From positions 7,679 through 71,678 of the IMG/VR virus record IMGVR_UViG_3300021968_000069: a stretch of 64,000 bases of DNA; one strand, 5' to 3'. Source of the DNA: a virus. Taxonomy: Duplodnaviria; Caudoviricetes. This document shows, piece after piece, positions 53 to 34,627 of the stretch. The notes under the pieces were generated by a model. It was not told where the DNA came from and searched no databases. It saw nothing but the letters and a program-made list of their open reading frames with translations. Every line of letters starts with the position of its first letter. Position 1 is the first letter of the stretch. The position numbers were made by a program, and so were the translations under genes.

Positions 53-82
53 CAAATGTAAATAAAATACTACATTTTGTAA
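53..82 (-). promoter_or_regulatory. Putative late promoter (TACATTTG -7 box with upstream TACA-N3-TGTA palindrome)
   Basis: Matches the Bacteroidota TAnnTTTG -7 consensus; 26 of 29 aligned positions identical to 34222-34250; an ATG at 17 starts an ORF that runs off the window. Confidence 0.55.
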
Positions 83-10035: not shown

Positions 10036-10040
10036 TGAAT

Positions 10041-11827: not shown

Positions 11828-11838
11828 TAGTTTGGTTT

Positions 11839-13188: not shown

Positions 13189-13263
13189 GCATAGGTGAGA
13201 GCTGACATTCGAATTCGAGTTCTGGTTATCGTAGTCGTTGTACGAGAGACTGGAACCTGAAGA
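13189..13263 (-). repeat. DGR template repeat (75 nt, 20 adenines)
   Basis: TCT TCA GGT TCC AGT CTC TCG TAC AAC GAC TAC GAT AAC CAG AAC TCG AAT TCG AAT GTC AGC TCT CAC CTA TGC; intergenic, just upstream of RT. Confidence 0.95.
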
Positions 13264-13295
13264 AGGCCGCTCAAGCAGCACACCACCCATTCCTG

Positions 13296-13661: not shown

Positions 13662-13666
13662 TGTTA

Positions 13667-14134: not shown

Positions 14135-14144
14135 CAGTTAGTAT

Positions 14145-14885: not shown

Positions 14886-14886
14886 T

Positions 14887-15927
14887 TTAGAATGGAGCTT
14901 TCTTTTGTTCTGGTTCTTTTACTTCGCCTGTTTGCTTATCTACGTTTTCATTTTTATCAACAGGATCTTTGATCTCTTCTGCTTCTTCAAACTCCATTGT
15001 TTTTTTATTGGCATTGTCAGTGATCTCTGCTTTTACCTGGTTATCCCGGTACTCACTTTCTTTTAATATCAAAGCCAGGTAATTGCTATCGATCTTTTCC
15101 GAGTCGATGGTGATCGCATTGTAAGCAGCCCGGTAAATAGTTTTGTGAGCCATTTCATCATACCATCCTTCCACCTGTTCTTTGCCCCGCTTTACATTTT
15201 TTTGTTGAGCATCATCCCATTCCCATTTATCTTTTTCACCACCCCAAAACTCAGCTGATGCATACTCCGGTTTTCTTTTATCGATATCCTTTTTTGAAAA
15301 TACCTTTAGCCTATTCTTCTCTGGTGTTTTGAAGAAATTGTGATAATAAAATCCCCCGACTATTTCACCGCGATCAAAGTTTTCTGTCACTTCGAAAATG
15401 TAGCTTTCAACTTTGTTATTGTTATCCTTTTTTATTTGAACAAACTTGTCTTTCGCATACACCAGTTCCACCACCACTTCATCAGGCATATCAAGACCGT
15501 ATTTTTTGGCCTTCAGTTCAATACCCCGGTAACCAGGAATGAAAGTGATGTCATACTTACCGGTTGATTTATTCTTATATGGTATCGGGTTCAGTTGGTT
15601 TGGCTGAGTGGGATCAAGACCAACACTGGAGTAAATGATCACATCATTTGCCAGTTTTTGAATGTTCACGTTTTCCCAAATAAGGGGAGTGGGGTCAGCA
15701 TAACTTTTTTTCTGTTGCCGCTTTAATTCAGAATCTTTCAGCATCATATCAATCTTGATAAAGTAATTCTGGCAAAGCTTTTTTTGAAAAGAAGTGAGGT
15801 TCAGTTCGCCGCCATTGTTAGCAGAGAATTCACGCATCACCGCATTGGTGAATCTTTCAGAATGTGATGGTTGTTGTTTGGCAACCGCTGTGTCGGTCCC
15901 ATTAGGTGTTTTAATGTCTGTAGTCAT
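14887..15927 (-). CDS. RecT-family single-strand annealing protein
   Basis: GLDP...IPY, GYRGIEL, GEIVGGF, WYDEMAHKT; lies between the ATPase and MBL genes. Confidence 0.75.
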   Translation of the reverse strand: MTTDIKTPNGTDTAVAKQQPSHSERFTNAVMREFSANNGGELNLTSFQKKLCQNYFIKIDMMLKDSELKRQQKKSYADPTPLIWENVNIQKLANDVIIYSSVGLDPTQPNQLNPIPYKNKSTGKYDITFIPGYRGIELKAKKYGLDMPDEVVVELVYAKDKFVQIKKDNNNKVESYIFEVTENFDRGEIVGGFYYHNFFKTPEKNRLKVFSKKDIDKRKPEYASAEFWGGEKDKWEWDDAQQKNVKRGKEQVEGWYDEMAHKTIYRAAYNAITIDSEKIDSNYLALILKESEYRDNQVKAEITDNANKKTMEFEEAEEIKDPVDKNENVDKQTGEVKEPEQKKAPF

Positions 15928-15957
15928 AAATTATAATTTGAATTTTAATGATATTGT

Positions 15958-17967: not shown

Positions 17968-18002
17968 ATCTTCGTTTTTTATTATTATAAAATCTCTTTA
18001 GG

Positions 18003-19460: not shown

Positions 19461-19524
19461 GTATTGTATTATTACATTTTGTAAAATTCCACTAATCGGG
19501 TATTGACATCGGATATTTACGATA

Positions 19525-19880: not shown

Positions 19881-20474
19881 GTGAGTATGTATCAGATTGA
19901 TTGGCAAAAGGTTGGTGAGAGGCTACAAGAATTACAGAAAGCCCTTAATATTAAATCAAGCAGACAATTTGCACTTGCTCTTGATATAAATGGGAAGACT
20001 GGAGATCCAAGTTATATGGCGAAAGCGGAGAAAGGATCTACTCTAAGTGATTCCTACATTACAGCCATTGAAACAAAATTTAATGTTAACGCGGATTGGC
20101 TAAAAACAGGACATGGTGAAATGTTTGGTAAATCACCAAAAAAAGTTCCACATGGAACAAGTAGGGTGAATGAGGACCAGGCAGACTATGCGTGGAAGGA
20201 TAAATACATAGCCGTTATTGAAAAAGAAAAAGAAAGACTTGAAAAGGAAAATGAACGGCTAGAAAATAACCTGGAACTCAGCTTAGGTGAGTTAAGGCAT
20301 AACATTTTGCTTTCAAGAGCAATAGCGGAGACAACTCAGGAGCTGATCGTGGAATACCTGGAGAAAGGAAATAAGAAGAAGATCGTTGAGTTAATCGATA
20401 CCGTAGGCACAAAGAACCTCGAGAGATATCAGAAACTGAAAGAAGAGGGCAATTTTGCTTACGTGGGCAAGTAG
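19881..20474 (+). CDS. CI-like XRE repressor (no S24 peptidase domain; coiled-coil C-terminus)
   Basis: GERLQELQKAL...RQFALAL...FNVNADWLKTGHGEMF. Confidence 0.8.
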   Translation: MSMYQIDWQKVGERLQELQKALNIKSSRQFALALDINGKTGDPSYMAKAEKGSTLSDSYITAIETKFNVNADWLKTGHGEMFGKSPKKVPHGTSRVNEDQADYAWKDKYIAVIEKEKERLEKENERLENNLELSLGELRHNILLSRAIAETTQELIVEYLEKGNKKKIVELIDTVGTKNLERYQKLKEEGNFAYVGK

Positions 20475-20658: not shown

Positions 20659-21081
20659 ATGTCTTGGTCTCCAGTTTTAATGCTTGCATTTATTCTCCTT
20701 TTAATTTCAGGTTGTACCGACCAGAAGAAATACAACTTGAAGATCTATTCAAAGCATACTGATACCAAAGAAGAAAAAGAGGAGATAAGAAAGCTGACAT
20801 CAATTAATGATTCTTCAGCATACAAAAGAGCATGTGAAGAATACTGGATATTAAAGTCAGCTAAGATGACGGTTTATAAAAAGACTGAATTCCCGGATTA
20901 CATACCATTCTATTTTTCGCTTGAAAGAGATAATGGATCTAGTGTTAGCTATTCAAAAGAAGAAGCTGAAAGACTGACGCAGGAGATCGTTGATTATTTT
21001 AAGAATAAAGTAATGCCTGGCATCGATACAATTACTCCTTATTCAAAATTACCAAAATCAGAACCGCCAAAAATTTATTGA
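20659..21081 (+). CDS. Lipoprotein
   Basis: Hydrophobic leader ending LISG-C. Confidence 0.7.
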   Translation: MSWSPVLMLAFILLLISGCTDQKKYNLKIYSKHTDTKEEKEEIRKLTSINDSSAYKRACEEYWILKSAKMTVYKKTEFPDYIPFYFSLERDNGSSVSYSKEEAERLTQEIVDYFKNKVMPGIDTITPYSKLPKSEPPKIY

Positions 21082-21476
21082 TTATGAGAACTGCTTTACT
21101 AATACTCATAATATTCTGTTCTTGCTCCCAGAATCAAAATCAGCAAAGCAATAATGATATTCTCATTAACAAAACCTGGAAAACATATTCATACACCAGC
21201 AATGGCACAGCTGATCCGGTGGTCGTTGCCTCACAACCTACATTTCAATTCAGGTCCGACAATAAAATGTATTTCTCACAGATCAATCCTGTATATCGGG
21301 ATACTCTCAATTTTGTTTTTATAAATGATAACAATATCAAACTTACAAAACCGTGGGTAAGTGCAACATCACAGGGCAATTTAAAAATTGACAGGCTTAC
21401 AGAAAATGATTTTGATTTCACATTAACAGACAACCAGACTTCTGATATTGATGTTTACAAAACAACTAAGCAATAA
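21078..21476 (+). CDS. Lipoprotein, lipocalin-like
   Basis: IFCS-C lipobox; LINKTWK motif; beta-rich. Confidence 0.65.
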   Translation: MIMRTALLILIIFCSCSQNQNQQSNNDILINKTWKTYSYTSNGTADPVVVASQPTFQFRSDNKMYFSQINPVYRDTLNFVFINDNNIKLTKPWVSATSQGNLKIDRLTENDFDFTLTDNQTSDIDVYKTTKQ

Positions 21477-21790
21477 TGGCAAAGAAGTTATTCATAGCAG
21501 ATGAACGCATGCTGCAGCTAATGGAATGGGCAATCCAAAAAGGTATTGTAGAAACCGAAACAGAGTATTGGGAAAAAATAAAATTTGGAAGGACCAGCAT
21601 CAGTAATGTAAAGCAGGGCACCCAGGGATTCAGGAATTATCACATCCTGAATGCATGTAAGCTCACTGGCACCAGCGCTGATTATATTTTTGGCTTCACA
21701 AACAGCATGAGTCGAAGGCCTCCTGTGAAAGCAATTGACCTATTAAAACAAGCTGTTTCCGCTGTGGAGCATGAGATTAAGTCCAAATGA
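21476..21790 (+). CDS. XRE-like HTH protein next to attP
   Basis: RTSISNVKQG...HILNACKLTGTSADYIF. Confidence 0.65.
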   Translation: MAKKLFIADERMLQLMEWAIQKGIVETETEYWEKIKFGRTSISNVKQGTQGFRNYHILNACKLTGTSADYIFGFTNSMSRRPPVKAIDLLKQAVSAVEHEIKSK

Positions 21791-21795: not shown

Positions 21796-21984
21796 TACAC
21801 AGCACCGTACACAAACCAACCCTATGAATACACAAAAAGCATTGAAGTACACAGTAATGACATTGATAATCAATTGTATTTATTGCTAAGGTAGAATCTC
21901 GTACGGGCTACAAGGGTTTATAAATAGTTGATTGCAAGGTCTATCCAAGGCACCAATGCTTTAACGTACACAAGTGAGTACACA
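21796..21984 (+). other. Putative intact attP
   Basis: tRNA-3'-end-like core 21894-21913; six TACACA direct repeats; IHF consensus AATCAACTATTTA (minus strand, 21921-21933). Confidence 0.7.
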
Positions 21985-21996
21985 AAAACATTGGTT

Positions 21997-23166
21997 ATGA
22001 CACTCGATCAACCTTCGAAACTTTACACAGAGCCGAAGATATCTCCGGCCGAACCTGAATCATCACACATGTCCATTAACTGGTATGTATGGTTCAGGTT
22101 TTTTGATGCTACAACCGGAAAGTGGCAGCAAATCCGCTACAAGAAAGGGATCAATGAATTCAAGAATTTCCGTGAACGGCTGGCTGAAGCCAATGCGCTG
22201 AAGCAGGCGCTTAAAGAAGAACTCCGTGATGGATGGAACCCACTTGTAAAGGACCGGTTACTTTCAATAAAGATCTACTCGATAGAAGATGCATTCAAAC
22301 ATATGATTGGTATAAAGGAGATGACGCTTAAAATTAAAACAAAATATGCCTACCGGTATATTACAAACCTTTTTTTAGAATGGCTGCGGTCAAAGGGGCT
22401 TAATGGACTTGCTATAAAAAGATTTACTCCGGGCCAGGCACAGGAATATATGGACTGGATGCTTATGAAAAAAAAGTATAGCGGCCGGACCTTCAATGAT
22501 CACCTGATCGTGCTACGTACATTTTTTAATTGCTTTATAGAACGTGACTGGATCCAGAAGAATGTTTTCCGATCGGTGAAAAGAAAAACGCAGGTGGTTG
22601 GAAGAAACCTTGCTTATACCGATAATGAAAAGAAGTTGCTGGAGCAAGAACTTTATAATAATGACAGGAGACTATATTTTTTTACCCAGATCATGTTTCA
22701 TTGCTTTATAAGACGAACAGAGAATGTTTCCTTGAAAATAAAACATATCGATCTATTAAATAGAACAATCGTAATACCTGGTGGGAATGCAAAAAACAAT
22801 CACCAGGAGAGTGTTGTTATCCCGGAAGGGTTGATACAGGTCTTAAAAGAAATGGAGCTGCATAGATATAACTCTGAAGATTATTTGTTCGGAAGAAAAT
22901 TATTAACGGGACCCATTCAATATAAAAATCCTGACTGGATCACTACAAGACATAAAAAATTTATTACCAAGTTGAATATAAAAGGAGAGAAGAACCTGTA
23001 CAGCTGGAAACATACCGGTGTCTGTGCTTATTACTATGCTACTGGAAAAGATCTCTTTTCTTTAATGCGGCAGCTGAGGCACCGGAATATATCTACAACG
23101 CAAATTTATTTGAAATCAATGGGCCTTATACAAAATGAAGCATTCAGAAATGCAATGGTTGCCTAA
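21997..23166 (+). CDS. int: Tyrosine recombinase / integrase
   Basis: CFIRRTE (R), AKN (K), YSWKHTG, QLRHRNISTTQIY (H, Y); start moved to MTLDQP, outside attP. Confidence 0.92.
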   Translation: MTLDQPSKLYTEPKISPAEPESSHMSINWYVWFRFFDATTGKWQQIRYKKGINEFKNFRERLAEANALKQALKEELRDGWNPLVKDRLLSIKIYSIEDAFKHMIGIKEMTLKIKTKYAYRYITNLFLEWLRSKGLNGLAIKRFTPGQAQEYMDWMLMKKKYSGRTFNDHLIVLRTFFNCFIERDWIQKNVFRSVKRKTQVVGRNLAYTDNEKKLLEQELYNNDRRLYFFTQIMFHCFIRRTENVSLKIKHIDLLNRTIVIPGGNAKNNHQESVVIPEGLIQVLKEMELHRYNSEDYLFGRKLLTGPIQYKNPDWITTRHKKFITKLNIKGEKNLYSWKHTGVCAYYYATGKDLFSLMRQLRHRNISTTQIYLKSMGLIQNEAFRNAMVA

Positions 23167-23885
23167 ATTTTTTTTTCACACGGATGGGCATCCGGAAGAA
23201 TCTCATTCAAAAATTCAATCATTGGTTCATTCATTGCATCATCGCTAGTGGAAAAGTATTTACAACCAATCAACTGTCTTCGAATCGCTGCTATTGTTTT
23301 TGAGTGATGAAATTTTTTCTCCCGCTCAGTTGGTTCACCTTCTATTCGAAGGGTATTAGCATACAATGATTTTGAAATAAATGATTTTGGCCGATCCCAA
23401 TCATATAATGCCATTACTTCGATATACTTCTGCTTATCATAAAGGATCGGGAAGTGTACATTGAAAAACTTTGTTGGTAGTTGCTTTTCCAGTAACGCAT
23501 CGTTTGTTACGGTTACATATGCCCTATACTTACTATCGTGAGCCAACCACTGTAAGGGTTCTTTAAAAGTTCCATAGCAATAAAACGGAAGCTCAGCAGC
23601 ATTATAATCGTGCAGCAAAATATAATCATCACTGGCGCATATGAAAGGATCACTTACTTCCGGCTGCCGGCAGGCTGCCAGGATCTTTTCATAAATATTC
23701 CGTGCCTGGTTAAAGCCGTGAATGTTCCCCATTGGAATAATGGTTACATCTTTGAAGATGCCGGGATCATCACCTACGATAAAAACTTTACCAATTCCTG
23801 AAACATGTTTTTGAAAGGATCGGAGTGAATAGCGGATCTCGTTTGTATTACTGCCGGCAGTGTATAAATAAACAAGATCGATCAT
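23163..23885 (-). CDS. Stealth-like hexose-phosphotransferase
   Basis: IDLVY, EIRYSLRS, SDDY, HFPILYDK, FSTSDD correspond to Stealth conserved regions. Confidence 0.7.
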   Translation of the reverse strand: MIDLVYLYTAGSNTNEIRYSLRSFQKHVSGIGKVFIVGDDPGIFKDVTIIPMGNIHGFNQARNIYEKILAACRQPEVSDPFICASDDYILLHDYNAAELPFYCYGTFKEPLQWLAHDSKYRAYVTVTNDALLEKQLPTKFFNVHFPILYDKQKYIEVMALYDWDRPKSFISKSLYANTLRIEGEPTEREKKFHHSKTIAAIRRQLIGCKYFSTSDDAMNEPMIEFLNEILPDAHPCEKKI

Positions 23886-24433
23886 ATAATGCCGAGGAGT
23901 TCTTTGCGGTTATTATTGAATTGATCCCAGCTCATATTAGTAATGAAGCCGGGTTCTATTTTTTTATCTTTGTATTTAATAACACCACAACCACAGTCAA
24001 AATCTTTACAGTAGGAAAGAACATCTGGATACTTTATTCTGAAACCTACAAATGCCCTCCATACGTCGCCGTACCAGATCTTGTGTTGGCGGGGCACCAG
24101 TTGATCCTTTTCGGTTGGTGGATTACAATCATGTAGAACAATAAACCCTTTAGGATTCAAAACCCGCATGCTGTTAATGATATCTTTCTCCACCTGTTTT
24201 GCTGTGTGATCTCCATCGATGAATATGATATCAAACTTCCTATTGTCCCAGTCAAAAAAAACATCTGATGTGCATTGATGTGTAGCCTCTGCCTTTGGAT
24301 CCGGATCCACACTTACTTTTACTTTTGCTTCTATCTTATTAAAGTTGTTTGCCGCTTTTTGCATACCGATCTCCAGGTAAGAATTAAGGCCATGAGTATT
24401 AATAAGCATGTTGATCAACTCAGTCCTTGTCAT
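23882..24433 (-). CDS. Class I SAM methyltransferase (Methyltransf_24-like)
   Basis: YLEIG, FDIIFIDGDH, GFIVLHDC. Confidence 0.85.
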   Translation of the reverse strand: MTRTELINMLINTHGLNSYLEIGMQKAANNFNKIEAKVKVSVDPDPKAEATHQCTSDVFFDWDNRKFDIIFIDGDHTAKQVEKDIINSMRVLNPKGFIVLHDCNPPTEKDQLVPRQHKIWYGDVWRAFVGFRIKYPDVLSYCKDFDCGCGVIKYKDKKIEPGFITNMSWDQFNNNRKELLGII

Positions 24434-25080
24434 ATTGTTTCTGGTTTTCTGTTATGTATATGTGGAATATGAATGAATTCATTATTATTCCTGTAATCCC
24501 AATCGATCACATGAAATGATGGCTGGCGCCATGCTGCATAAGCAAAAGCGATCTGGTCACGGCTGCTGTATAATTGGACTTGCTGGTACCATAAATCACA
24601 GAGATCGATCGCCTGCTGATTCATTTTACGCATCAACACTCCGGATGCAATAAGGCCATTGTGTTTTGGTAAACCACTTTGCCTGTAATTGAAGACTTGC
24701 TTTCTTAATAATATCTCAGAATCTTTTCCACGATTAGCACAAATCCTTGCTTCCTGGTATGCACAGTTGCGAACCGGGTGGCCCACACAGGTCATTGGCT
24801 CTTTGAACCGTGTCCACCATTCATTAAGATCTGTATTGATAACAAAGCTGGCATCGATCCACATACTAAACTCCGTATCGATATACCGATGGAACATGAT
24901 CTTATAAAAGCGGGCTGTCCTTGCTGCACCTTCCGGTTTCATTTCGCGATGTTCTATCTTCCAGACTTTACTTTTTAATGGCTGATCGGTAAAGCATATA
25001 TACTGCCACCCGGGAGTAATAACCTTTGGTTCTTTGAGGTCATCGTAAGGACCGAATATGGCTGTGAAGATGGTTTTCAT
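24430..25080 (-). CDS. DUF616 / TOD1-MUCI70-like glycosyltransferase
   Basis: FTAIFGPYDDLKEP, WIDAS, SRDQIAF. Confidence 0.8.
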   Translation of the reverse strand: MKTIFTAIFGPYDDLKEPKVITPGWQYICFTDQPLKSKVWKIEHREMKPEGAARTARFYKIMFHRYIDTEFSMWIDASFVINTDLNEWWTRFKEPMTCVGHPVRNCAYQEARICANRGKDSEILLRKQVFNYRQSGLPKHNGLIASGVLMRKMNQQAIDLCDLWYQQVQLYSSRDQIAFAYAAWRQPSFHVIDWDYRNNNEFIHIPHIHNRKPETI

Positions 25081-25976
25081 GCTGCTTTCTTTTTTCTGTT
25101 ACGAGCAGCAATGCCAATATTTAATCTTCCTATCTCGGATTTTGGTTTTGAATTACCAATACCAATTAATCGTTTTGTTTCTTCGCTGTGTTGAACTCCG
25201 GTTTGTACTATAGAAATATTTTTATTCCTGGCTTTCCACATTTCTTCTGCCTTCTCAATACCGTGTTTTTGTACCCAAATATCTTTTGTACTCTTGCCGG
25301 CCATAGGGTTTGGCTTACCATACATACCATTATTCATTCCAGATGTAGCACATGAAAGACAAATGTTTTTCCCAATACCGCACATTGCCTTTGATTTCCC
25401 TCTTTTATTAAAAGGGTATCTTATTTTTATGGAGCAACCAGTATTTTGATTTGGGTTTGCACAATTGAACTCATAATATTTTGTGCCATCAAGTTCTACA
25501 ACGGTTATACCATCCGGCAATGGCTTATATCGTGGATTGTTTTCACCGGAAACATCTGCATGATTTTTACTGACCTTGCTCTTAATAATTTTAGCGATCT
25601 CCGGGCCATAAGTATTTTCAATTTTCCCAGACGAACGACCTCTACCACCTGAATGTATATTTGTTAAGCTTTCGTTTTTGTATTCAGATATGAAGTACTG
25701 TTCTTTTTCATAAGCAACAGATTCATCATTTGTATTGTATAGGATAACATATCCAATTGCCAACCCTGAGCTAATAATCAATTTGATTGTATTGGTCAAA
25801 TGCTTATTCCCAACGTATTTATTATTGTTTATAACCTTTCGCTCATGCTCAAATAACCTTTTGCCACATCCCTTGCCTATATAGAACATTTTTCCTGTAA
25901 TTGGATTTACTAATCCATAAACATAAAAAGCTCTATTAATAGAAGTCAAAGCTTCTTCAGCCGTTAACCAGGTCAT
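25077..25976 (-). CDS. GIY-YIG (LEM-3-like) homing endonuclease with NUMOD3-like tail
   Basis: FYVYGLVNP...FYIGKG...R..H; HSEETKRLIG. Confidence 0.8.
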   Translation of the reverse strand: MTWLTAEEALTSINRAFYVYGLVNPITGKMFYIGKGCGKRLFEHERKVINNNKYVGNKHLTNTIKLIISSGLAIGYVILYNTNDESVAYEKEQYFISEYKNESLTNIHSGGRGRSSGKIENTYGPEIAKIIKSKVSKNHADVSGENNPRYKPLPDGITVVELDGTKYYEFNCANPNQNTGCSIKIRYPFNKRGKSKAMCGIGKNICLSCATSGMNNGMYGKPNPMAGKSTKDIWVQKHGIEKAEEMWKARNKNISIVQTGVQHSEETKRLIGIGNSKPKSEIGRLNIGIAARNRKKKAA

Positions 25977-26958
25977 TTTGAAATTTTGATTTTAATAACT
26001 TATATCTCTGAGAAACCATTTCCGTCAATAGCTTTTGAAAACTCCAATCTGGTGTCCATCCAAGTGTTCTTTTTATTTTTGTGGAATCCCCCCTTAGGTA
26101 TTCCAATTCTTGGGGCCTTAAAAAACTTGTATTCTGTACAACATAGTCACGGTAGTCCAAACCCAATTCATCAAAGACCAATTCACACCATTGCCTTACA
26201 GAATGTGTTTCTCCGGTAGCAACTACGAAATCATCGGCCACATAATGATTAATGATTAAATGCATCGCCTTTACATAATCTCCAGAAAAGCCCCAGTCAC
26301 GAAATGAGTCGAGATTTCCAAGCTCAAGAACATCGCATAACCCAAGTTTTATTTTAATGGCACCATCTACAATTTTTGTAGTAACAAAATTGCTGCCTCT
26401 TCTCAGTGGGCTTTCATGATTAAAAAGAATACCGTTGCAAGCGTGAAGATTAAATGCATTACGATAATGCCGAACAATATTATAACCGAAAACTTTTGAA
26501 CATCCGTAAGGGCTCACCGGGTTCATTGGAGTCAATTCCCGTTGATAGCCATCAGCATCAACGCTACTTCCAAACATCTCTGAAGATGATGCTTGATAAA
26601 ATTTTGCTTTTGGACAAATCTTTCTATAAGCCTCCAGCATATTAAGAACACCGATCGCATTTACCTGGGCGGTGAATTGGGGGATTTCACTCGAGATCCT
26701 CACATGCGACATCGCTGCAAGATTATATATTTCATCAGGCATTACTTCAGTCATCACTTTTTCAATGGATCCGGCATCGGTTACATCGCCATAATATGTA
26801 GTTATTTTCTTACTTAAATGAGCAATCCTGCTTTCCTGGTGTTCGCTCACGCTATTACGCCTGATAACTCCAGATACCAAATAGCCTAATGATAAAAGGT
26901 GCTCTGATAGATAAGCTCCATCCTGTCCTGAAATTCCTGTGATTAAAGCGTGTTTCAT
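25957..26958 (-). CDS. gmd: GDP-mannose 4,6-dehydratase
   Basis: ALITGISGQDGAYL, YNLAAMSHV, YQASSSEMFG, SPYGCSK, GILFNHES, RDWG. Confidence 0.95.
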   Translation of the reverse strand: MKHALITGISGQDGAYLSEHLLSLGYLVSGVIRRNSVSEHQESRIAHLSKKITTYYGDVTDAGSIEKVMTEVMPDEIYNLAAMSHVRISSEIPQFTAQVNAIGVLNMLEAYRKICPKAKFYQASSSEMFGSSVDADGYQRELTPMNPVSPYGCSKVFGYNIVRHYRNAFNLHACNGILFNHESPLRRGSNFVTTKIVDGAIKIKLGLCDVLELGNLDSFRDWGFSGDYVKAMHLIINHYVADDFVVATGETHSVRQWCELVFDELGLDYRDYVVQNTSFLRPQELEYLRGDSTKIKRTLGWTPDWSFQKLLTEMVSQRYKLLKSKFQNDLVNG

Positions 26959-27500
26959 AATATAGCTACAAAGTTTTTAGGCTTACTGTTTAATGTGATC
27001 AATTCTTTTGGTTGTAAATATTTGATCGTTGCAATTACCATTTCATCATCCCAATCCTCGAACTGGATATATTTTATGTTGCGGATCATATCGCCACAGC
27101 CTTTTATAACATTCAGGTCGTAACCCTCAGTATCTATTTTTAAGAGATCGATCCGGGTTATGTTTTTATCTCTACAGTAATTTTCCACCGTATCGATGTT
27201 GATCGTGATTTCGTGGTGATCGGTACATTTTGGATCATCCCTTAAAAGGATGGACCCGTATGCAGGATGAAAGACTGAACTTGTTTTCTGATCACCGAGA
27301 CCGATATTATTAAAGTGAATTTTTGGCTTCCCTGATATTTTTTCAATCAGGCTGTTTCTTTGTACTGGGTCAAATAAATGCACTTCGATCCCGGGCTTTA
27401 ATTCATCGAAAACATTATCGTCCCTGCAGCCGACATCAAACACCACATTCAGCTTGTGAATGATGGATTGATAAAACGATATTTCTTCTTCACTGATCAT
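26955..27500 (-). CDS. FkbM-family methyltransferase
   Basis: VFDVG, LFDP, LLKIDTEGYD. Confidence 0.85.
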   Translation of the reverse strand: MISEEEISFYQSIIHKLNVVFDVGCRDDNVFDELKPGIEVHLFDPVQRNSLIEKISGKPKIHFNNIGLGDQKTSSVFHPAYGSILLRDDPKCTDHHEITINIDTVENYCRDKNITRIDLLKIDTEGYDLNVIKGCGDMIRNIKYIQFEDWDDEMVIATIKYLQPKELITLNSKPKNFVAIL

Positions 27501-28087
27501 AAATTTTTAAATATTTTCATTTGAGTAAGATCGGGCCAATCATTTACGGTCCATTGCCGAGGCTCTGTTCTTATTGCTTCTGGTAATTTCTTTAAGCCCA
27601 ATTCTGCGGTTTCTGGTGTCATGTAATAATGATATCCCATAGTATCAATATCCTGGTCTCTCCATGGTATTCCAGGCAACCGGCCATCGTAAGACATTTT
27701 CTTTAATTCAATAGCAGCTTCTTTGTTATCACAAAGGATCATTCCCCCTCTACCTAATGATAAATGCTTTTGATATTGGAAACTGATGCTCATGAATGTA
27801 CCGGGTATGTAACTGTTGGGCTTCCATAAAACAGCAGCATCAATGATTTGCGGAGTTAAATAATAATAATCTTTCCAGTCAATGTCTTTCCAAGTAAGAT
27901 CAATGTTCAATTTGTTGGCTAACATTGGGACGGACAAATATGTCCGTTTCGGTGAAAAGAAATTTTTGATATTGAGAATCCGAAGACATAATTCCATTCC
28001 GTGGGTGGCACTGTCAACACAAATACCAAAGGGGACTCCAAAAAACTCCGATATTTTATTTTCAAATTCTGATACTATTTTATTCAT
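27497..28087 (-). CDS. Short DegT/DnrJ/EryC1/StrS aminotransferase
   Basis: SATHGMELCL, IDAA, SFQYQKHLSLGRGGMI, GYHYYM; only 196 aa. Confidence 0.8.
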   Translation of the reverse strand: MNKIVSEFENKISEFFGVPFGICVDSATHGMELCLRILNIKNFFSPKRTYLSVPMLANKLNIDLTWKDIDWKDYYYLTPQIIDAAVLWKPNSYIPGTFMSISFQYQKHLSLGRGGMILCDNKEAAIELKKMSYDGRLPGIPWRDQDIDTMGYHYYMTPETAELGLKKLPEAIRTEPRQWTVNDWPDLTQMKIFKNL

Positions 28088-28815
28088 GCTACTTCTTTAT
28101 ATTTCCATTTAAATCCTTTAGACACTCTGTTTTCTCTACAAGCATTTGTAATGTTTGCCCTGCATCCCAATTTTATTTCTGCTTCAGCAATTGACGAGTA
28201 TTCCGCAACAAAATCTCCAGCAATAGTTAATTGAATTACAGCCTTTCGCTGTGTACTTATTACCGCTCCTTTTATACCTTTGTTCCACGGCAGCATCACT
28301 TTACGAAGTTTAGACCAAATCATTCTTTGTAATTCGGTTTTTGGTCGACCAGAGTTCTTTGTCGCTATAGCCCTCTTGTGTTCTTCGGAAATAGTTTGTT
28401 TTTCGTAAATCCTGCTTTTTTTTGTTGCAAGCTGTTTTGCAATAACATGTTTTGGCATTGGAATTCCCTTATTCCAAGCGGTAAGACCAGATGTCCTGTT
28501 TGCCACTTTACAAATATTAAATCGTGGGTTTAGAGTATCAATATAAAACTGCTCTCTCGATGTTAATTGATCTTTATTATCCACAAACTCGATTATCTGG
28601 AACAGCATATTTAATTCACCATATTTATTATATGCGTTTTGTAGCTTTTTGTTTTCGTGTATGTTATCTCTTAGCTTATTATAGTGAGTGTTTTTTCTTT
28701 GGCCAAATTTGGATGCAGATCCAACATAAATGCCACCATTGATAATACACTTTATTTGATAAATGCCAGATCGGTTATATAAACCATCAATTAATCTGAA
28801 TGGATTATATTTCAT
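28084..28815 (-). CDS. GIY-YIG homing endonuclease with NUMOD3/NUMOD1-like domains
   Basis: SGIYQI...IYVGSA; EQFYID; VIQLT..GDFVAEYSSIAEA. Confidence 0.85.
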   Translation of the reverse strand: MKYNPFRLIDGLYNRSGIYQIKCIINGGIYVGSASKFGQRKNTHYNKLRDNIHENKKLQNAYNKYGELNMLFQIIEFVDNKDQLTSREQFYIDTLNPRFNICKVANRTSGLTAWNKGIPMPKHVIAKQLATKKSRIYEKQTISEEHKRAIATKNSGRPKTELQRMIWSKLRKVMLPWNKGIKGAVISTQRKAVIQLTIAGDFVAEYSSIAEAEIKLGCRANITNACRENRVSKGFKWKYKEVA

Positions 28816-29438
28816 AAATTATTATTTTTAAATAAAACATTACCGAAGCTTTCGCCCCAATTATACATTGCCATCATTTCATAATAAGGCAAATGATTTT
28901 TAACTATAGCCAACAGATCATCAACATGCACCTGCCCTTCATACAATTCTTTTACCGCCGCTTCGATATATAAAAACCTTGTGACGGATAGGGTAGTAAG
29001 TCCACCAAGAATAAAATCCTTTTCAGATCCATTCAGATCTGCCCATATAAAATCAATTACCCGGCTTTCGCTGCGCTGCAGGTACCAGGTATCAAGTTTT
29101 TTACTTTTTACTTTTGTCACTTCATCAAACTCAACTGCGGGGAATAAATTCAAATGGCGCTTAGGTGGATGAATGGAATTACTCTGCGGATGATTGGATT
29201 GATAAAAATCTATTTCACCATTTACATTACTGAGTGCAAACCTGTGCAGGTGTAATCTTTTGTTTTGTCCATGCAATGATTCAAACAGGTCCTGTGAAAG
29301 AGGATCTGGTTCAAAACAATGAACATCACATTTTAATATTTCAGAAAGTTCTATGCTATCCTTTCCATCATAGCAGCCAACATCCAGTACAAAGGGATCT
29401 TGTTTATTAACCAGTGATTTTATTTGTTGCTTATTCAT
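28812..29438 (-). CDS. FkbM-family methyltransferase
   Basis: VLDVGCYDG, CFEPDP, IDFIWADLNGSE, LYEGQ. Confidence 0.85.
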   Translation of the reverse strand: MNKQQIKSLVNKQDPFVLDVGCYDGKDSIELSEILKCDVHCFEPDPLSQDLFESLHGQNKRLHLHRFALSNVNGEIDFYQSNHPQSNSIHPPKRHLNLFPAVEFDEVTKVKSKKLDTWYLQRSESRVIDFIWADLNGSEKDFILGGLTTLSVTRFLYIEAAVKELYEGQVHVDDLLAIVKNHLPYYEMMAMYNWGESFGNVLFKNNNL

Positions 29439-30469
29439 TGACAGATTTTTGTTAGTCTGTGAAACCTATCTTTTGTGATACCTTCTGCGGTATCTTCCCA
29501 ACCAAGTGCCACTAACTTTTTATAAAACGAATTACCAGTGTCAATCCACATGCTTACGTACTCACTTCGGTTTTCATAAAGGAATCTTTCCAGCGTTAAG
29601 AGCTGATAGTGTTCCTCCTCAATTTGCAGTTCGATAAATAGTTTGCCATCTGCTCGATAGGTTTTAAACGACCCCTTCACGACATCATCTTCAACAACAT
29701 CAAACCCGTTATCCTTAACAGCAAAAAGCATTTCAGATAAGAAATGTGAATCGGGTTGTGGTATTGAATCAGGCATGTCCCATTCATAAGTGAATGCCCG
29801 GTGAAATAAACACTGGTAAGGCACAAACAGAGTGTTGAAACCTTTGTGTTCAGAAAAATAACGGAGGTACCGGTCGAAATATGGAATTGAATATCGATCT
29901 GAATAATCAGAAATTGTCAAACCATTCTTTGTAAAGAGTTCAGCAAACATGCTTTGTTCCTGGCCATCCTCAATCCCGTTTTTATAGAATTTTGGATCGC
30001 AATTATCAGCCAATATTTTTCTGAACGCAGATGATTTAACGATGCCCTGATTTTGCTGCGGATGCAATGGATCTGTTTTCCTGAATCTTCCATATTTACC
30101 GCAGAGATAATCACAACCTTTTTCTTCCATCAACATAACAAGTAAAGTATCGAAGTGGTCAATATTTGGGATATAATCATCTTCAACAATTATGTAATGG
30201 GTGAAATAATTTTCGTATGTTTTGTAAGCAAATAAGAATTGTCCGTAGCTACGATCGTTTTCCGATCTATCTATAAGTGTAATATGTTTACGGATCTCTG
30301 GATCAATATTGTAAAACTCTTCATTATCGCTGCCCGCCGGCCGTACCACTGTGATCTGTGCAAGGTTGTGTTTGAGTTCAAACAATCTTTGCAGGTGTTT
30401 TTTTAAATACTCAGTGCTCGGGTTTCTCCTTATGCCGGACCAGGTTGCTATGACATAGTTGATCCTCAT
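29435..30469 (-). CDS. GT-A-fold glycosyltransferase-like protein
   Basis: SYGQF...YIIVEDDYI DxD-type motif. Confidence 0.6.
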   Translation of the reverse strand: MRINYVIATWSGIRRNPSTEYLKKHLQRLFELKHNLAQITVVRPAGSDNEEFYNIDPEIRKHITLIDRSENDRSYGQFLFAYKTYENYFTHYIIVEDDYIPNIDHFDTLLVMLMEEKGCDYLCGKYGRFRKTDPLHPQQNQGIVKSSAFRKILADNCDPKFYKNGIEDGQEQSMFAELFTKNGLTISDYSDRYSIPYFDRYLRYFSEHKGFNTLFVPYQCLFHRAFTYEWDMPDSIPQPDSHFLSEMLFAVKDNGFDVVEDDVVKGSFKTYRADGKLFIELQIEEEHYQLLTLERFLYENRSEYVSMWIDTGNSFYKKLVALGWEDTAEGITKDRFHRLTKICQ

Positions 30470-31029
30470 TTGGTAGCTTCCACGTTTAAGGATATTAAAA
30501 TATGCTTATCGGTAAAGTTGCCGGTCCTGATCGCTTCCGGATCATGTGGGAGATGTGCATGCGAATGGTCATCGATATGAGCATGCTCTGTTTGCCGCCA
30601 ATCATATTTGCGAATGTTTTTAAATCCAACATCAGTTAGCAAATCATGAAGGCTATCATAATCAAAAGTTGTTTTGTGATATATTTTGTGACCAGCCATT
30701 TCCATACGTCCGAATAAAGGACCAATTATATCTAACAATTTGAAATCTGCTGTTTCGTATGCGTACGATAGTGCTTCAAAGTCAGGAACAGCAATTCTAA
30801 GAATGCCGCCACGTTTTAAAACATTGTACCAACTCCATAAAAGTCCACTAGCTTCTATTAGGTCGAAATATTCCAGGAGATGTGAAGAATAAATTACATC
30901 TGCTGAATCTTGGTTTTGGCTCATTAACCATACATCAGAAGATTTTACGTGCGGATAATTTTCACCATCAATATGAATCCATTCTGGACCAAAGTCACGT
31001 TTGCCACAGCCAATATGATATTTGATCAT
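30466..31029 (-). CDS. SAM methyltransferase (Methyltransf_11-like)
   Basis: YHIGCG, IYSSHLLEY, LKRGGILRIAVPD. Confidence 0.85.
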   Translation of the reverse strand: MIKYHIGCGKRDFGPEWIHIDGENYPHVKSSDVWLMSQNQDSADVIYSSHLLEYFDLIEASGLLWSWYNVLKRGGILRIAVPDFEALSYAYETADFKLLDIIGPLFGRMEMAGHKIYHKTTFDYDSLHDLLTDVGFKNIRKYDWRQTEHAHIDDHSHAHLPHDPEAIRTGNFTDKHILISLNVEATK

Positions 31030-31718
31030 AAAATATTTTTTTCTTTCATTTCGGCAATTACGTTTTCATCGATACCATTCAGATCAAAAGCAAACAGATC
31101 TCTTTTTCTTACTCCTTCATTATGGGCTATTGGAGCACTAAACTTATCCAGTGCCAGGTTCACAAATTCATTCTCCGGATGATCGTATATTGTTCCTTTC
31201 AGATTTTCAAATTCCCATGGTGAGTGACCTGGCCATAACCATTTCAACAAAAACTTTTTATTCCAGATAGCGGGTTGAGTGCTGAGGTGATATGCAGAAA
31301 CGGGAGGAGTTTGAAATATTTCAGCACCATCAGCAAGTTGTCCGTAAAGTGTTGTGTAATGTTTAATGCTATCACAGGATAAAGAGATACGACCGATGTT
31401 TGCATTGTATTTCATTAAGCTCATAAGATCAGTAAGCCGCTGGTATTTTACATGATCCTTTAAAAAAGTATCCTCCATTAGCCAGATTATGTGATCATCC
31501 TGTTTTTCAAAATATTTGATAAGATCATCTGAGAAGAATGATGGACCTCGTTGCTCACCCATTGAGTGAAATGTGCAATATGATGGCAAATTCTTTGGCT
31601 CTTTGTAACCAACTAATTCAACTTCGCCACCCCAATATTTTTCAAATAGAAAAAAGAACACCGGGAGGATGTGATGATAACGGTCACTGGTTGTCACAAT
31701 AATTTTGAAATCACTCAT
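31026..31718 (-). CDS. Putative glycosyltransferase
   Basis: IWLMEDTFL, STQPAIWN, SPWEFE. Confidence 0.6.
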   Translation of the reverse strand: MSDFKIIVTTSDRYHHILPVFFFLFEKYWGGEVELVGYKEPKNLPSYCTFHSMGEQRGPSFFSDDLIKYFEKQDDHIIWLMEDTFLKDHVKYQRLTDLMSLMKYNANIGRISLSCDSIKHYTTLYGQLADGAEIFQTPPVSAYHLSTQPAIWNKKFLLKWLWPGHSPWEFENLKGTIYDHPENEFVNLALDKFSAPIAHNEGVRKRDLFAFDLNGIDENVIAEMKEKNIL

Positions 31719-32125
31719 AAAAAAACTTTATCCATTTTCTGTCCATAATAAGGCCCCGTTTTAAACTCTAAAATTCTACTGTTATCAGCTAATATTAAAT
31801 AGTTGTGTCCTCCCTGCAGGGTGAAACTTGCGTCACCGGCTTTAAGGATCGGCTCAGCCAATACACTATCATCAAGATCATAAAACGTGCATCTTACTTT
31901 ACCAACAATAACAACCCAGCTTTCCTGGGCGATCATTAGCAAGTCCTTTTGCTTCCAGATATGTTTATGAGGTTTAAAGGTGGTGCCGGCTTTTAAGTTG
32001 AGTGTAGAGCATTGGAGAAATTCTTCAGGATAAATAAGATCTTGTCTTCCTGGAACAAAGTCTTCCTTTCTTATTACAAAGTGTAAAAGAATTTCAGGAT
32101 CCCTTTTTGAATAGAATTTTTCCAT
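31715..32125 (-). CDS. Cupin-fold sugar isomerase-like protein (WbuC-like)
   Basis: FKPHKH, QESWVV, GGHNY, EFKTGPY. Confidence 0.7.
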   Translation of the reverse strand: MEKFYSKRDPEILLHFVIRKEDFVPGRQDLIYPEEFLQCSTLNLKAGTTFKPHKHIWKQKDLLMIAQESWVVIVGKVRCTFYDLDDSVLAEPILKAGDASFTLQGGHNYLILADNSRILEFKTGPYYGQKMDKVFL

Positions 32126-32901
32126 TATAGTTTATAAGTTTCATCAATAACATCCATTCCTCTTCCTTGTCCTCTTGTTCGCTTCCCTGCAAACGAATCA
32201 AAGATGCTCCCGATATCCATTGATATACCACCATGATCTCTAAACCAGTTATTATAAATTTTACCAACAACACCGGCGCCAACAAGACACAGATTTCCTT
32301 TAACAGGAATTGTTGTTACCCATTTCTTTATTTCATTATACTGATCAGGAAAATGTGGAGGACCATCATACCCGGATGTGTAATACATTTCGGGAGCAAT
32401 GATGAATGAATACACATTTTTTATTCTGTAACGTCTTTTAAACGCTTCATCAAGTTGCCGGCATGAGATATAACAAAGTGTATCTATGCCAGTGAGCAGT
32501 TGATCGTAATAACCTTTATCAAGAAAATGAGAATGGACGTCGATGTTGGTGATCTCTTTTTTAGCCAGGTACTCAGCACCAACTGCTGTATTTAATATTG
32601 AGCCTGATCTGTGCCAGTAACTGTTCGGATCATTCATGTGCCTGTTTATAACAGGAATGCCGATTATATCTGCCTCTCTGTATGCTTGTATTAAATTTTG
32701 TCGGATACTTGTGATCTCATTATGAGCCGGAATATGACCCAGCAATTTTCTAAGAATGAAATGAAGGCTACCATGATCATTAAATCCGTTCAAAACCATG
32801 GCCTCACCATCGCCATATCTTACAATTGATAAAGGATCCTTTTCGTTAAGGCAATTTATCAGCCGTTCAAATACTTTATCCATGGTAAGATTTACTTCCA
32901 T
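32125..32901 (-). CDS. GT-D-fold glycosyltransferase-like protein
   Basis: SIVRYGDGE, LVGAG..GK, DIGSIFD. Confidence 0.75.
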   Translation of the reverse strand: MEVNLTMDKVFERLINCLNEKDPLSIVRYGDGEAMVLNGFNDHGSLHFILRKLLGHIPAHNEITSIRQNLIQAYREADIIGIPVINRHMNDPNSYWHRSGSILNTAVGAEYLAKKEITNIDVHSHFLDKGYYDQLLTGIDTLCYISCRQLDEAFKRRYRIKNVYSFIIAPEMYYTSGYDGPPHFPDQYNEIKKWVTTIPVKGNLCLVGAGVVGKIYNNWFRDHGGISMDIGSIFDSFAGKRTRGQGRGMDVIDETYKL

Positions 32902-33665
32902 CAGTATAAATATTCCCTCAAAAATTTTGTGTGATTAAATAAAACTATCTGCCCCTTGTGGGTTAGATAATCTCCTTCTTCTATGTCCGTATCAATAAAC
33001 CAGGATGCATTTTGAAAAGTGTTGCCAAGATCTATCACATTAAAATCCTTTGCATAAAAACTAAGTAGCCATTGGCCCGCAGCATGGTGATCAAAATTTT
33101 GAATCATCCTATCGATATCACCAATATATTTTTGACTAAGTTGTCTATATGTTTCTGCTCTTGCAATTACGATACCTGAGCAATACAAAGGAATTGCACC
33201 CCATCTTCCTGGAAACTCACGATTGATTTTTAAGTAATTTCTTTTGGGACGCAACCGAAAAAATTCTTCCCGGAGAGTCATCACTGGTTTGGCAGATGCT
33301 GATAATGCAATTTCGCCTTGTTTTAAATCAGCTAATATCTTTTTTTCCGAGGGGCTCATTGTTCGCTGCATGATCATATCAACATCAGTTTGCAGGATAA
33401 GCTCATCCGGAGTAAAAGAAAAATAATTAAAGAAATCACCGCCTTCACAGCAAATAAAAAAGTCGCGGTTTGCCGGCCATCCCCGGCGATAACTTGGTAG
33501 ATCTTCAGCCTCACAGGTAGCATAGTACCATTCCTTAACTTTCTCTTTTGGGTCAAAATCAATGCACAGGACGCAAACCCGGTCTTTCCAGTTCTTACGC
33601 AATGATTCAAAGAAATCTTTTCCCCTGTGATAATACTCTTCATTGCAGCAGATAACGATCGTCAT
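32901..33665 (-). CDS. Putative GT-A glycosyltransferase (GT8-like)
   Basis: QTDVDMIMQR, YCSGIV, QWLL, FNH. Confidence 0.55.
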   Translation of the reverse strand: MTIVICCNEEYYHRGKDFFESLRKNWKDRVCVLCIDFDPKEKVKEWYYATCEAEDLPSYRRGWPANRDFFICCEGGDFFNYFSFTPDELILQTDVDMIMQRTMSPSEKKILADLKQGEIALSASAKPVMTLREEFFRLRPKRNYLKINREFPGRWGAIPLYCSGIVIARAETYRQLSQKYIGDIDRMIQNFDHHAAGQWLLSFYAKDFNVIDLGNTFQNASWFIDTDIEEGDYLTHKGQIVLFNHTKFLREYLY

Positions 33666-34204
33666 GTTTGTAAATGTTTTTTATCAGCAATGCCATTCAT
33701 AAGCCGGTAAGTGTGCCATATATAAAGACCATCCATTCTTAAAATTTGTAAACCATCGGCCCGGATCATGCGGCCGTAATGGGTATCTACCCCAAGCGCC
33801 TTGCCGGTATCAGGGAATGGTGTTTTGTTCCATGTCTTTTTACTGACCACCATCAGGAAGCCGCTGATATCACGATCGATGACTGTTGTTTGAAAAAGGA
33901 GATTCTTTTGTTCTTCAGCATATTTTATGTGTGTCCTCATATCACTATCTTCATCTACGGCACAGAGAAGCAACTGCCCTTTGCTGAGCGGACTTACCCG
34001 GTTAGTAAAACAAGTGAGGATCCCTGCTTCGGGATTGCGGTAAACATATTCTTGGATAATCGTGCCGGCATCGGGAGTAAGAAAGCAAGTATCGATATCG
34101 CAAAGGCAGGCGGCATCGTCTTCCGGGAGCATTGCCATTGCGTCATTATACGCCTTTCCAAGATTTTTGTCGTTGCGGTATGGTTTAAGGATGTGTACCT
34201 GCAT
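33662..34204 (-). CDS. Small GT2-like glycosyltransferase
   Basis: PYRNDKNLGKAYN, CLCDIDTCF, GLYIWHTYR. Confidence 0.65.
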   Translation of the reverse strand: MQVHILKPYRNDKNLGKAYNDAMAMLPEDDAACLCDIDTCFLTPDAGTIIQEYVYRNPEAGILTCFTNRVSPLSKGQLLLCAVDEDSDMRTHIKYAEEQKNLLFQTTVIDRDISGFLMVVSKKTWNKTPFPDTGKALGVDTHYGRMIRADGLQILRMDGLYIWHTYRLMNGIADKKHLQT

Positions 34205-34221: not shown

Positions 34222-34250
34222 CAAATGTAATAAAATATTACAATTTGTAG
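34222..34250 (-). promoter_or_regulatory. Putative late promoter of the glycan operon
   Basis: TACATTTG plus TACA-N3-TGTA; near copy of 53-82. Confidence 0.6.
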
Positions 34251-34299: not shown

Positions 34300-34599
34300 A
34301 TGAGAAATTCAGCCATTTTGTTTTTCGGCTTTGCAGCAATGTTGACTGCCGGATTACTTACAAAACCGAAGCAATTAACACCTCTTGAAAAGAAATACAT
34401 TTCGATGTCAGATTCAATGACCTACTATTACCAAAAAAGACACTGCTACTTTGCATGCGGCAATACTGACAGCGCCTATCAAGTTGAAAAAATATATTGG
34501 TATTATCGAGATAACGTTGTTAACCTCCAAAGAATATTATTTGATTCTCTTACTCCAAATGGTCAGGCAGAAGAAAAAATGAGCTGTGATTGTAAATAA
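34300..34599 (+). CDS. Secreted or membrane-anchored hypothetical protein (moron-like)
   Basis: N-terminal hydrophobic segment; opposite strand with its own promoter and terminator. Confidence 0.55.
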   Translation: MRNSAILFFGFAAMLTAGLLTKPKQLTPLEKKYISMSDSMTYYYQKRHCYFACGNTDSAYQVEKIYWYYRDNVVNLQRILFDSLTPNGQAEEKMSCDCK

Positions 34600-34601: not shown

Positions 34602-34627
34602 AGTCCCGCTGTAGAAACAGCAGGACT
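34602..34627. terminator. Bidirectional terminator hairpin AGTCCCGCTGT-AGAA-ACAGCAGGACT
   Basis: Lies between convergent genes; member of the CTGT-N4-ACAG family. Confidence 0.65.

Follow-up and report, generated by a model that had tools for sequence, protein, structure and literature searches.

The 64,000-nucleotide (nt) window analyzed here, bases 7679-71678 of a 71,678-bp tailed-phage record (IMGVR_UViG_3300021968_000069), carries an operon of 16 open reading frames (ORFs), without gaps, at positions 23163-34204 of the minus strand; 14 of these encode carbohydrate enzymes and two encode GIY-YIG homing endonucleases. We consider glycosylation of the phage's own virion to be the best reading of this operon, at a probability of about 0.45. 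The operon would then be a phage-autonomous glycan factory, switched on with the packaging and structural genes, whose product is a methylated oligosaccharide assembled in the cytoplasm, straight onto at least one phage structural protein. Such a glycan coat would be optional, and its likely use would be the shielding or tuning of the particle surface. A wider and more doubtful proposal is that Bacteroidota phages of soil and freshwater share a portable, phage-specific set of about 13 genes that gives their virions a methylated glycan coat, built around an uncharacterised GDP-sugar that a miniature DegT-type enzyme (miniDegT) produces.

The 16-ORF layout and profile searches confirmed the original prediction of a 14-gene carbohydrate operon with two interspersed endonucleases. 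Neighbouring genes overlap, mostly by ATGA as had been predicted: by 4 nt at 11 of the 15 junctions, by 1 nt at two and by 20 nt at one. With a 19-residue window at a Kyte-Doolittle value of at least 1.6 as the criterion, no transmembrane (TM) segment was predicted in the 16 ORFs (maximum 1.44), in agreement with the claim that all products are soluble and that a membrane component is absent. The 14 enzyme ORFs are all intact and equal in length to the copies of relatives, and no BLAST-level paralogy was found among them.

Most of this gene set is present in other phages. Two soil phages from IMG/VR (L002 and L003, 51-53 kb) contain 13 of the 14 enzymes in unchanged order, without g2 and the endonucleases, and with integrase and repressor genes following the cassette; the capsid protein and the reverse transcriptase of the diversity-generating retroelement (DGR) of these relatives are 74% and 76% identical, respectively, to those of the present phage. 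Contig L045 has 11 cassette genes in shuffled order after DnaB and primosome genes, with an inserted HNH endonuclease, and L046 has 12, also shuffled, beside a divergent terminase. In L132, from a Chitinophagaceae metagenome-assembled genome (MAG) bin, a single strand encodes a primase-polymerase, 12 cassette genes, TerL, a head protein, a portal and virion proteins, and the TerL ORF overlaps the final cassette gene. Between 11 and 13 enzymes are shared at 35-69% identity and in shuffled order by several phage backbones, and the set recurs in two related phages and at least three other backbones. No multi-TM protein was found in seven cassette copies. The joint travel of 11-13 enzymes across backbones argues for one joint product. 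The earlier description of the operon as exporter-less and glycan-building is supported, and the operon can be seen as a self-contained assembly line. Additional enzymes are present in some copies, namely a NUDIX hydrolase in L002 (8426-8854), and an NDP-sugar epimerase/reductase of the short-chain dehydrogenase/reductase (SDR) type and a sulfotransferase-like protein in L046 (4890-5705 and 9308-9856), which also has an HNH endonuclease. The extra enzymes suggest different versions of the glycan.

A subset of the cassette is found in the cultured Cellulophaga phages phi17:1, phi18:1 and phi12:1, in which the segment from the portal/MuF genes to the prohead protease/capsid genes includes homologues of g15, g14 and g1. 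In phi17:1 (L155), gp41 (6540-7007) is the g15 homologue (43.5% identity), and gp42 (6989-8212) is a fusion whose N-terminal half is homologous to g14 and whose C-terminal half is homologous to g1. Phage phi18:1 has no lysogeny genes and forms clear plaques, and its authors left the function of the glycosyltransferase (GT) open (PMC11946311). We noted that gp41 of phi17:1 carries the annotation ‘DNA methyltransferase’. As a Methyltransf_24 homologue of g15, encoded beside the GT fusion, it is more likely to be a sugar O-methyltransferase than a DNA methylase. No isolate phage was matched by Megablast with the operon, or by protein searches with g7 and g3.

The shared promoter motif described in the original prediction is real. 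The predicted operon promoter and a second copy, ahead of the TerS-sized ORF and TerL (Table 1), match at 26 of 29 bases, and L002 and L003 have a similar element ahead of the operon. In the cassette-bearing genomes G002 and G003, a search by motif for a further promoter copy yielded weak matches only, which we did not trust. The palindrome within these promoters has a third and last genomic copy, in the immunity region, where a Cro-like 80-aa gene and a 67-aa early ORF flank it, compared with a chance expectation from base composition of ∼0.5 copies per genome. This copy may mark the site of a regulator that controls the terminase and glycan promoters. The likeness of the two promoters shows a shared regulatory element, from which we infer expression in the late lytic phase. 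Upstream of the operon, the lysis gene block ends in a terminator-like hairpin, and an equivalent hairpin with a T-run was found in L002 and L003. We also observed a 99-aa ORF on the plus strand (34300-34599), between the lysis genes and the operon promoter, with a signal-like, hydrophobic N-terminal segment, a Cys-rich C-terminus and no family match. It shares the hairpin as a bidirectional terminator and may be a secreted moron expressed in the lysogen.

Several of these results favour a virion acceptor. The cassette or a subset of it lies inside or abuts head and packaging modules, also in virulent phages; it has a terminase-like promoter, its own terminator and virus-restricted transferase families; the membrane parts that stand beside the same sugar module in a cellular locus (L136, see below) are gone from the phage copies; the lysogen-type genes (repressor, a lipoprotein and integrase) are on the plus strand, opposite to the cassette; and the temperate mycobacteriophages Che8 and Rita provide a precedent. 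The predicted tie to late genes is upheld by promoter likeness, by position in L132, L046 and the Cellulophaga phages, and by presence in virulent phages. The argument from a ‘late strand’ is uninformative, since early genes are also on the minus strand.

A number of observations weigh against this reading. Promoter likeness shows a common regulator and not the timing of expression. Alignment of capsid proteins showed no Ser/Thr extension or tail, and no indel, that tracks with the cassette. A Ser/Thr-rich repeat protein (41757-43496) was considered as an acceptor and rejected, being absent from the cassette-bearing G002 and G003. No cassette transferase resembles a known protein-initiating GT, and one structural neighbour of g7 is TarP, an enzyme of wall teichoic acid. 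In this phage, L002 and L003, the cassette adjoins the integrase behind a terminator, which is the classic position of a conversion moron. Five relatives that are 97-100% complete and share the structural module (capsid 66-70% identical) are without miniDegT, Gmd and GT2, which makes the cassette dispensable for the virion. Finally, the glycan and its acceptor are both predictions.

Less likely, but the strongest of the alternatives, is a remodelling of the host envelope. Here the substrate of the soluble phage GTs, at the cytoplasmic face, would be lipid A-core or a host-started undecaprenyl-linked intermediate, and the methylated glycan would reach the cell surface through an exporter of the host (MsbA, Wzx or an ABC type) and its ligase or O-oligosaccharyltransferase. 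The outcome would be superinfection exclusion, or progeny kept from adsorbing to debris. This would agree with the location of the cassette beside the integrase with its own terminator and promoter here and in L002 and L003, with its accessory nature within the phage lineage, and with the service of the same sugar module in an ordinary envelope locus of a cellular genome (L136); modification of lipopolysaccharide (LPS) is listed as one option for the Cellulophaga phage GT by its authors (PMC11946311). The original prediction had set the operon apart from classic O-antigen conversion, which holds in that the GtrABC membrane parts are absent, but the cassette is dispensable, adjoins the integrase and fits a conversion moron. 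Its step from the lack of an exporter to a cytoplasmic acceptor does not follow, since soluble GTs feed host exporters; TarP, a prophage enzyme that is among the structural neighbours of g7, acts on a host polymer and comes with no exporter. Solubility is the rule for O-antigen and core transferases that do not initiate a chain, and lipid A-core and undecaprenyl-linked glycans are built by soluble GTs at the cytoplasmic face and moved by host exporters. However, seven transferases and four methyltransferases amount to a whole chain and not to one decoration, and the flippases and polymerases of hosts tend to be selective. Phages without lysogeny genes also have the cassette or a subset of it, in or abutting head and packaging modules, and late timing would be poor for the turnover of a surface. 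The terminase-like promoter and the almost wholly viral distribution of the transferase families argue in the same direction.

Glycosylation of another cytoplasmic target, such as a host or phage non-structural protein (in take-over or anti-defence) or a small molecule, appears improbable to us. The enzymes are all soluble and without an exporter, no virion acceptor signature was found, and the lytic-type context would suit any function in an infected cell. However, we know of no case in which up to seven sugar-transferring enzymes assemble a methylated chain on a cytoplasmic target outside the virion, genes for the synthesis of an aglycone are not found nearby, and placement in the head module in several phages points to proteins of the particle.

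Transfer of the sugars to bases of the phage DNA, as a means to evade restriction, had been raised in the original prediction, and is very improbable. Glycosylation of phage DNA with up to three sugars is known (PMC13326640), and the enzymes here are soluble and of lytic-phase type. However, PF00303 (thymidylate-synthase type) had no match in the 71.7-kb genome though control genomes matched, leaving no such enzyme to provide hydroxylated or hydroxymethylated pyrimidines. A phage DNA polymerase is absent from the PHROG matches of this temperate, host-replicated phage, and the number of transferases and O-methyltransferases is far above that of any known DNA glycan. It is equally hard to credit that the operon is decaying, non-functional cargo: the cassette is accessory and has been invaded by two homing endonucleases, but its 14 ORFs are intact at the lengths of their relatives with overlapping stops and starts, their catalytic motifs are conserved, and the set is kept in distant phages.

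If the virion is indeed the target, the assigned families allow the following scheme to be drawn (Table 1). Gmd turns host GDP-mannose into GDP-4-keto-6-deoxymannose, as homology shows, and the cupin, the miniature pyridoxal phosphate (PLP) enzyme and the class-I methyltransferase, which form a conserved four-gene module with Gmd, would convert this into a modified GDP-6-deoxyhexose that is probably amino and methylated. Up to seven soluble transferases (g1, g7, perhaps g2 and g5, g3, g14 and g16) would then assemble a chain, to which g16 may add a sugar phosphate, and the two FkbM-type and one Methyltransf_24 enzymes would O-methylate it.

Table 1. Positions in the window of the predicted regulatory elements and of the 16 genes of the operon.
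Feature	Position	Strand	Description
Intrinsic-terminator-like hairpin	34602..34627	-	Stem of 11 bp, 6 of them GC, and a tail rich in T; best candidate of the region
Operon promoter (predicted)	34222..34250	-	-7 box TACATTTG (TAnnTTTG type), palindrome TACAAATTGTA before it; 17 nt ahead of g1 ATG
Sister promoter (predicted)	55..82	-	Shares the -7 box and palindrome of the operon promoter; followed directly by a 169-aa TerS-sized ORF and TerL
Palindrome TACAWWWTGTA, third and last genomic copy	19473..19483		Within the immunity region; a 67-aa early ORF follows after 12 nt
g1	33662..34204	-	Minimal GT-A-type glycosyltransferase, 180 aa; phrog_14179 (glycosyltransferase), E 8e-30
g2	32901..33665	-	Possible GT8-like transferase (lead), 254 aa
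g3	32125..32901	-	GT-D-fold glycosyltransferase, 258 aa; PF22882, E 1.4e-13, above cut-off
g4	31715..32125	-	WbuC-like cupin, 136 aa; opens the four-gene sugar module
g5	31026..31718	-	Virus-only family, 230 aa
g6	30466..31029	-	Class-I S-adenosylmethionine (SAM) methyltransferase (MT187), 187 aa; weak Methyltransf_23/_11 matches
g7	29435..30469	-	GT-A glycosyltransferase, 344 aa; variable ~100-aa C-terminal domain
g8	28812..29438	-	FkbM-type methyltransferase, 208 aa; PF05050, E 1.7e-11
g9	28084..28815	-	Free-standing GIY-YIG homing endonuclease between g8 and g10; PF01541, E 1e-10
g10	27497..28087	-	Miniature DegT-type PLP enzyme, 196 aa; PF01041, E 1e-15
g11	26955..27500	-	FkbM-type methyltransferase, 181 aa; PF05050, E 1.7e-10
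g12	25957..26958	-	GDP-mannose 4,6-dehydratase (Gmd), 333 aa; PF16363, E 1e-106; PDB 1rpn, E 4e-88
g13	25077..25976	-	Second free-standing GIY-YIG homing endonuclease, between g12 and g14; PF22945, E 6e-8
g14	24430..25080	-	TOD1/MUCI70 (DUF616) glycosyltransferase-like, 216 aa; PF04765, E 3e-15
g15	23882..24433	-	Methyltransf_24 methyltransferase, 183 aa; PF13578, E 2e-11
g16	23163..23885	-	Stealth-CR2-like, 240 aa; stop overlaps integrase stop tail to tail

The predicted tally of seven transferase-like proteins, four methyltransferases, three sugar enzymes and two endonucleases stands, with the Stealth and cupin assignments below threshold. Of four proteins that had been called GT-A-like, g1 and g7 bear out the call. 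In g1, D36-x-D38 and H164 are invariant across eight homologues, in addition to its PHROG match. No Pfam, PHROG or NCBIfam match was obtained for g7, and a PDB sequence search was empty. Among its 48 homologues, E96-D97-D98 is invariant, and an AlphaFold2 (AF2) model with a predicted local distance difference test (pLDDT) score of 85 has a GT-A fold in the N-domain, followed by a C-domain without an assigned fold. Foldseek matches of the model included GfsA, TarP, B3GalT5 and RmlT at a probability of 1.0, as well as GTs of giant viruses and phages, and a pattern scan for g7 in 185,579 species genomes did not find it.

The other two proteins, g2 and g5, remain GT8 and GT2 leads. No Pfam, PHROG, NCBIfam or PDB match was found for g2; the PDB sequence search returned matches solely at E ≥ 0.2, read as chance. 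Its Atlas neighbours are 100% viral, and one cluster has a GT8 label on 20% of its members, a lead that comes from a language model. It is the sole cassette gene without a counterpart in L002, L003, L045, L046 and L132. For g5, no Pfam or PHROG match was found; the Atlas gave a confident model (predicted TM-score 0.87) and clusters with 81-100% viral members, 25% of which bear a GT2 label, again as a lead. In L125-L127, g5 accompanies the sugar module, and it is possibly the GT-A-like transferase for the product of this module.

Copies of g3 that are 44-54% identical were found in five loci, and g3 matched NF040628 at E 7e-12 with 45.3 bits, below the curated cut-off of 75. The match of g4 to TIGR04366 (WbuC; E 1.4e-8, 34.6 bits) is likewise below its cut-off of 42. 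The g4 cupin is probably a keto-sugar isomerase or epimerase, and its copies (47-60% identical, in 17 loci) nearly always adjoin methyltransferase, miniDegT and Gmd genes. The methyltransferase g6 has copies that are 34-61% identical in 16 loci, in most of which it directly adjoins miniDegT. Of the Stealth regions CR1-CR4, CR2 (PF11380) alone matched g16, at 24.6 bits and below the cut-off of 39.4, which leaves the assignment a lead; phrog_7999 matched at E 8.5e-26. Possibly, g16 is a sugar-1-phosphate transferase. Homologues of g16 (26-27% identity), annotated as hypothetical, are found upstream of the terminase among small genes in 42 actinophage records, one such gene being at 1286-1972 of Mycobacterium phage Cheetobro (L001).

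The original prediction named g10 a DegT aminotransferase. It belongs to a real and large family and has kept the residues that bind PLP, but it is a miniature and not the full enzyme, with 196 aa compared to ∼370 aa for canonical DegT enzymes. The pyridine-binding Asp (D83) and the Schiff-base Lys (K107) of the DegT/DnrJ/EryC1 family are both present. The two-domain architecture of 360-400 aa is not, since g10 is without ∼30 N-terminal residues, ∼30 internal residues and the C-terminal domain. We considered that the DegT gene had been split by the GIY-YIG gene, and rejected this since relatives without the upstream endonuclease have proteins of the same length (64-67% identical) and short length is common to the whole family. 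This family is abundant in metagenomes and highly conserved; clustering at 90% identity gives at least 8000 clusters of ∼196 aa, and an exhaustive HMMER search gave 403 clusters at 50% identity (E ≤ 1e-10), nearly all of 190-260 aa. A comparison of 33 diverse members showed no variation at D83, S102, F103, G114 and G115, and conservation of at least 90% at K107. A family profile aligned with solved sugar aminotransferases over two matching stretches, with K107 on the Schiff-base Lys, and perosamine synthetase was among the top PDB profile matches (E 2e-19). The AF2 model had a pLDDT of 60, too poor for use. Short DegT genes are also found in exporter-less GT clusters of Flavobacterium phage immuto and Synechococcus phage S-SCSM2R.

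A pattern scan for miniDegT in the species genomes gave 17 of 185,579, mostly MAGs and single-cell genomes. In most of the 17 loci, cupin, MT187, miniDegT and Gmd are in this fixed order, at times together with g5. The module was also seen in marine single-amplified genomes, in L130, L131 and L135 (Prochlorococcus; a chromosomal island or DNA of an infecting phage) and in L137 and L136 (alphaproteobacterial). In L136, a 380-kb single-cell contig, the four genes are in the same order at 43-58% identity, and are followed by genes for an SDR, a WecA-type initiating transferase (7 TM), Wzy_C (9 TM), GT2 and an Amj-like flippase, with GT11 and a full-length DegT nearby. From its gene content, L136 is an ordinary export-dependent envelope locus; it is the one locus examined on which the cellular context of the module rests. 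The sequences thus indicate a sugar pathway common to cells and phages, with the phage copies lacking every membrane component. As for the GDP-perosamine pathway named in the original prediction, Gmd is clearly present, and perosamine becomes one possibility among others: the Per-like partner is truncated and always linked to the cupin and the methyltransferase, which suggests a product that differs from, or is further modified than, plain perosamine.

The g9 insertion is absent at the matching junction in L002, L003, L132 and L043, and that of g13 is absent from the g12-g14 junction of cassette-bearing relatives. The two endonucleases have marginal similarity to each other. Both have the features expected of free-standing GIY-YIG enzymes, namely the domain, an intergenic site and intact full-length flanking genes, with uninterrupted junctions in L002, L003 and L132. 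HNH homing endonucleases were seen at other cassette junctions in L045 (14946-15518) and L046 (11494-12009), and the neighbourhood of miniDegT and Gmd seems to attract such elements. We propose that g9 and g13 are selfish insertions aimed at this well-conserved neighbourhood.

The final 126 bases of the record duplicate its bases 10-135, so the assembly is probably circularly complete. We take it to be a phage of soil Bacteroidota; it is temperate and tailed, with a tyrosine integrase (21928-23166, plus strand) and a CI-like repressor (19881-20474, plus strand). Replication, recombination and DGR genes occupy positions 1-18000 and structural, protease and lysis genes positions 34654-64000, both on the minus strand. 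TerL, encoded immediately to the left of the window, shares 52% identity with the TerL of Cellulophaga phage phi17:1. A Bacteroidota host fits the -7 boxes of the TAnnTTTG type, which we take to be the Bacteroidota promoter consensus, as well as the Flavobacteriia phage relatives and the binning of cassette contigs with Chitinophagaceae, Ferruginibacter and Sphingobacterium. Three small plus-strand genes between the repressor and the integrase (20659-21081, 21078-21476 and 21476-21790) are candidate superinfection-exclusion or conversion genes; the product of the first has a lipobox-like LLISGC, and two of the three are kept in G002 and G003 at 41-60%. A tape-measure-like protein of 1639 aa, in which about five segments are hydrophobic, is encoded on the minus strand (53124-58043), and its gene is upstream of those for the head protease and the capsid. 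This order is atypical for a siphophage and is the same in the relatives G004, G005 and G008.

To our knowledge, giant viruses and a few mycobacteriophages are the only cases in which virion glycosylation has been established by experiment. If the operon does make a virion coat, such glycosylation would no longer be limited to actinophages and giant viruses, environmental phages would widely carry and exchange sugar coats, with bearing on adsorption, stability, recognition by grazers or the immune system and phage engineering, and a new nucleotide-sugar pathway would be defined. If it rewrites the host surface instead, it would be an unusually large conversion system, and a warning against equating the lack of an exporter with a cytoplasmic target. 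Specific to the present finding are the defined set of 13 genes across backbones, the module with a miniature PLP enzyme, the contrast between cellular and phage copies and the link to cultured model phages. Two objects can be tested directly: the three-domain subset in the head module of cultured Cellulophaga phages, and the four-gene GDP-sugar module with its minimal PLP enzyme.

Compared with known systems, the phage cassette differs from Wzx/Wzy or ABC polysaccharide loci in having no initiating transferase, no flippase or exporter and no polymerase or ligase; the cellular locus L136 shares the four-gene module and, unlike the phages, adds the membrane parts. With GtrABC of Shigella and Salmonella phages and TarP of Staphylococcus aureus prophages, the operon has in common that it is phage-borne, accessory and beside the integrase, and TarP is a soluble GT-A enzyme whose fold is common with g7. 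However, membrane parts of the type of the GtrA flippase and the GtrB bactoprenol transferase are absent from the 16 ORFs and from seven cassette copies, and those systems add one sugar to a host polymer, whereas up to seven transferases and four methyltransferases, along with a sugar pathway, are encoded here. Chlorovirus PBCV-1 encodes a Gmd together with soluble GTs and methyltransferases, and makes a methylated 6-deoxyhexose glycan on its capsid without the host secretory machinery. The combination of Gmd with soluble transferases and sugar methyltransferases is the same here. PBCV-1 is, however, a giant virus of eukaryotes with N-linked glycans, and the link to it is the likeness of the g7 GT-A fold to giant-virus GTs.

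In the temperate mycobacteriophages Che8 and Rita, glycans are reported on capsid proteins (PMC11256854; Freeman et al. 2023, as cited in PMC11256854 and PMC12582341). Both phages resemble the present one in being temperate, with integrase and repressor, and in having accessory soluble phage GTs; they are siphophages with the GTs at one genome end, and their capsid glycan acts as a shield. Our phage differs in host phylum, in a much larger cassette that makes its own nucleotide sugar, and in that its glycosylation is predicted. The link to actinophages is through g16, which alone has distant relatives there, in another position upstream of the terminase. The Cellulophaga phages phi17:1, phi18:1 and phi12:1 (Helsingorvirus) differ in that they are virulent and have three domains, two of them fused, without a sugar-synthesis module, but they carry direct homologues of g15, g14 and g1, have a TerL that is 52% identical and infect hosts of the same phylum.

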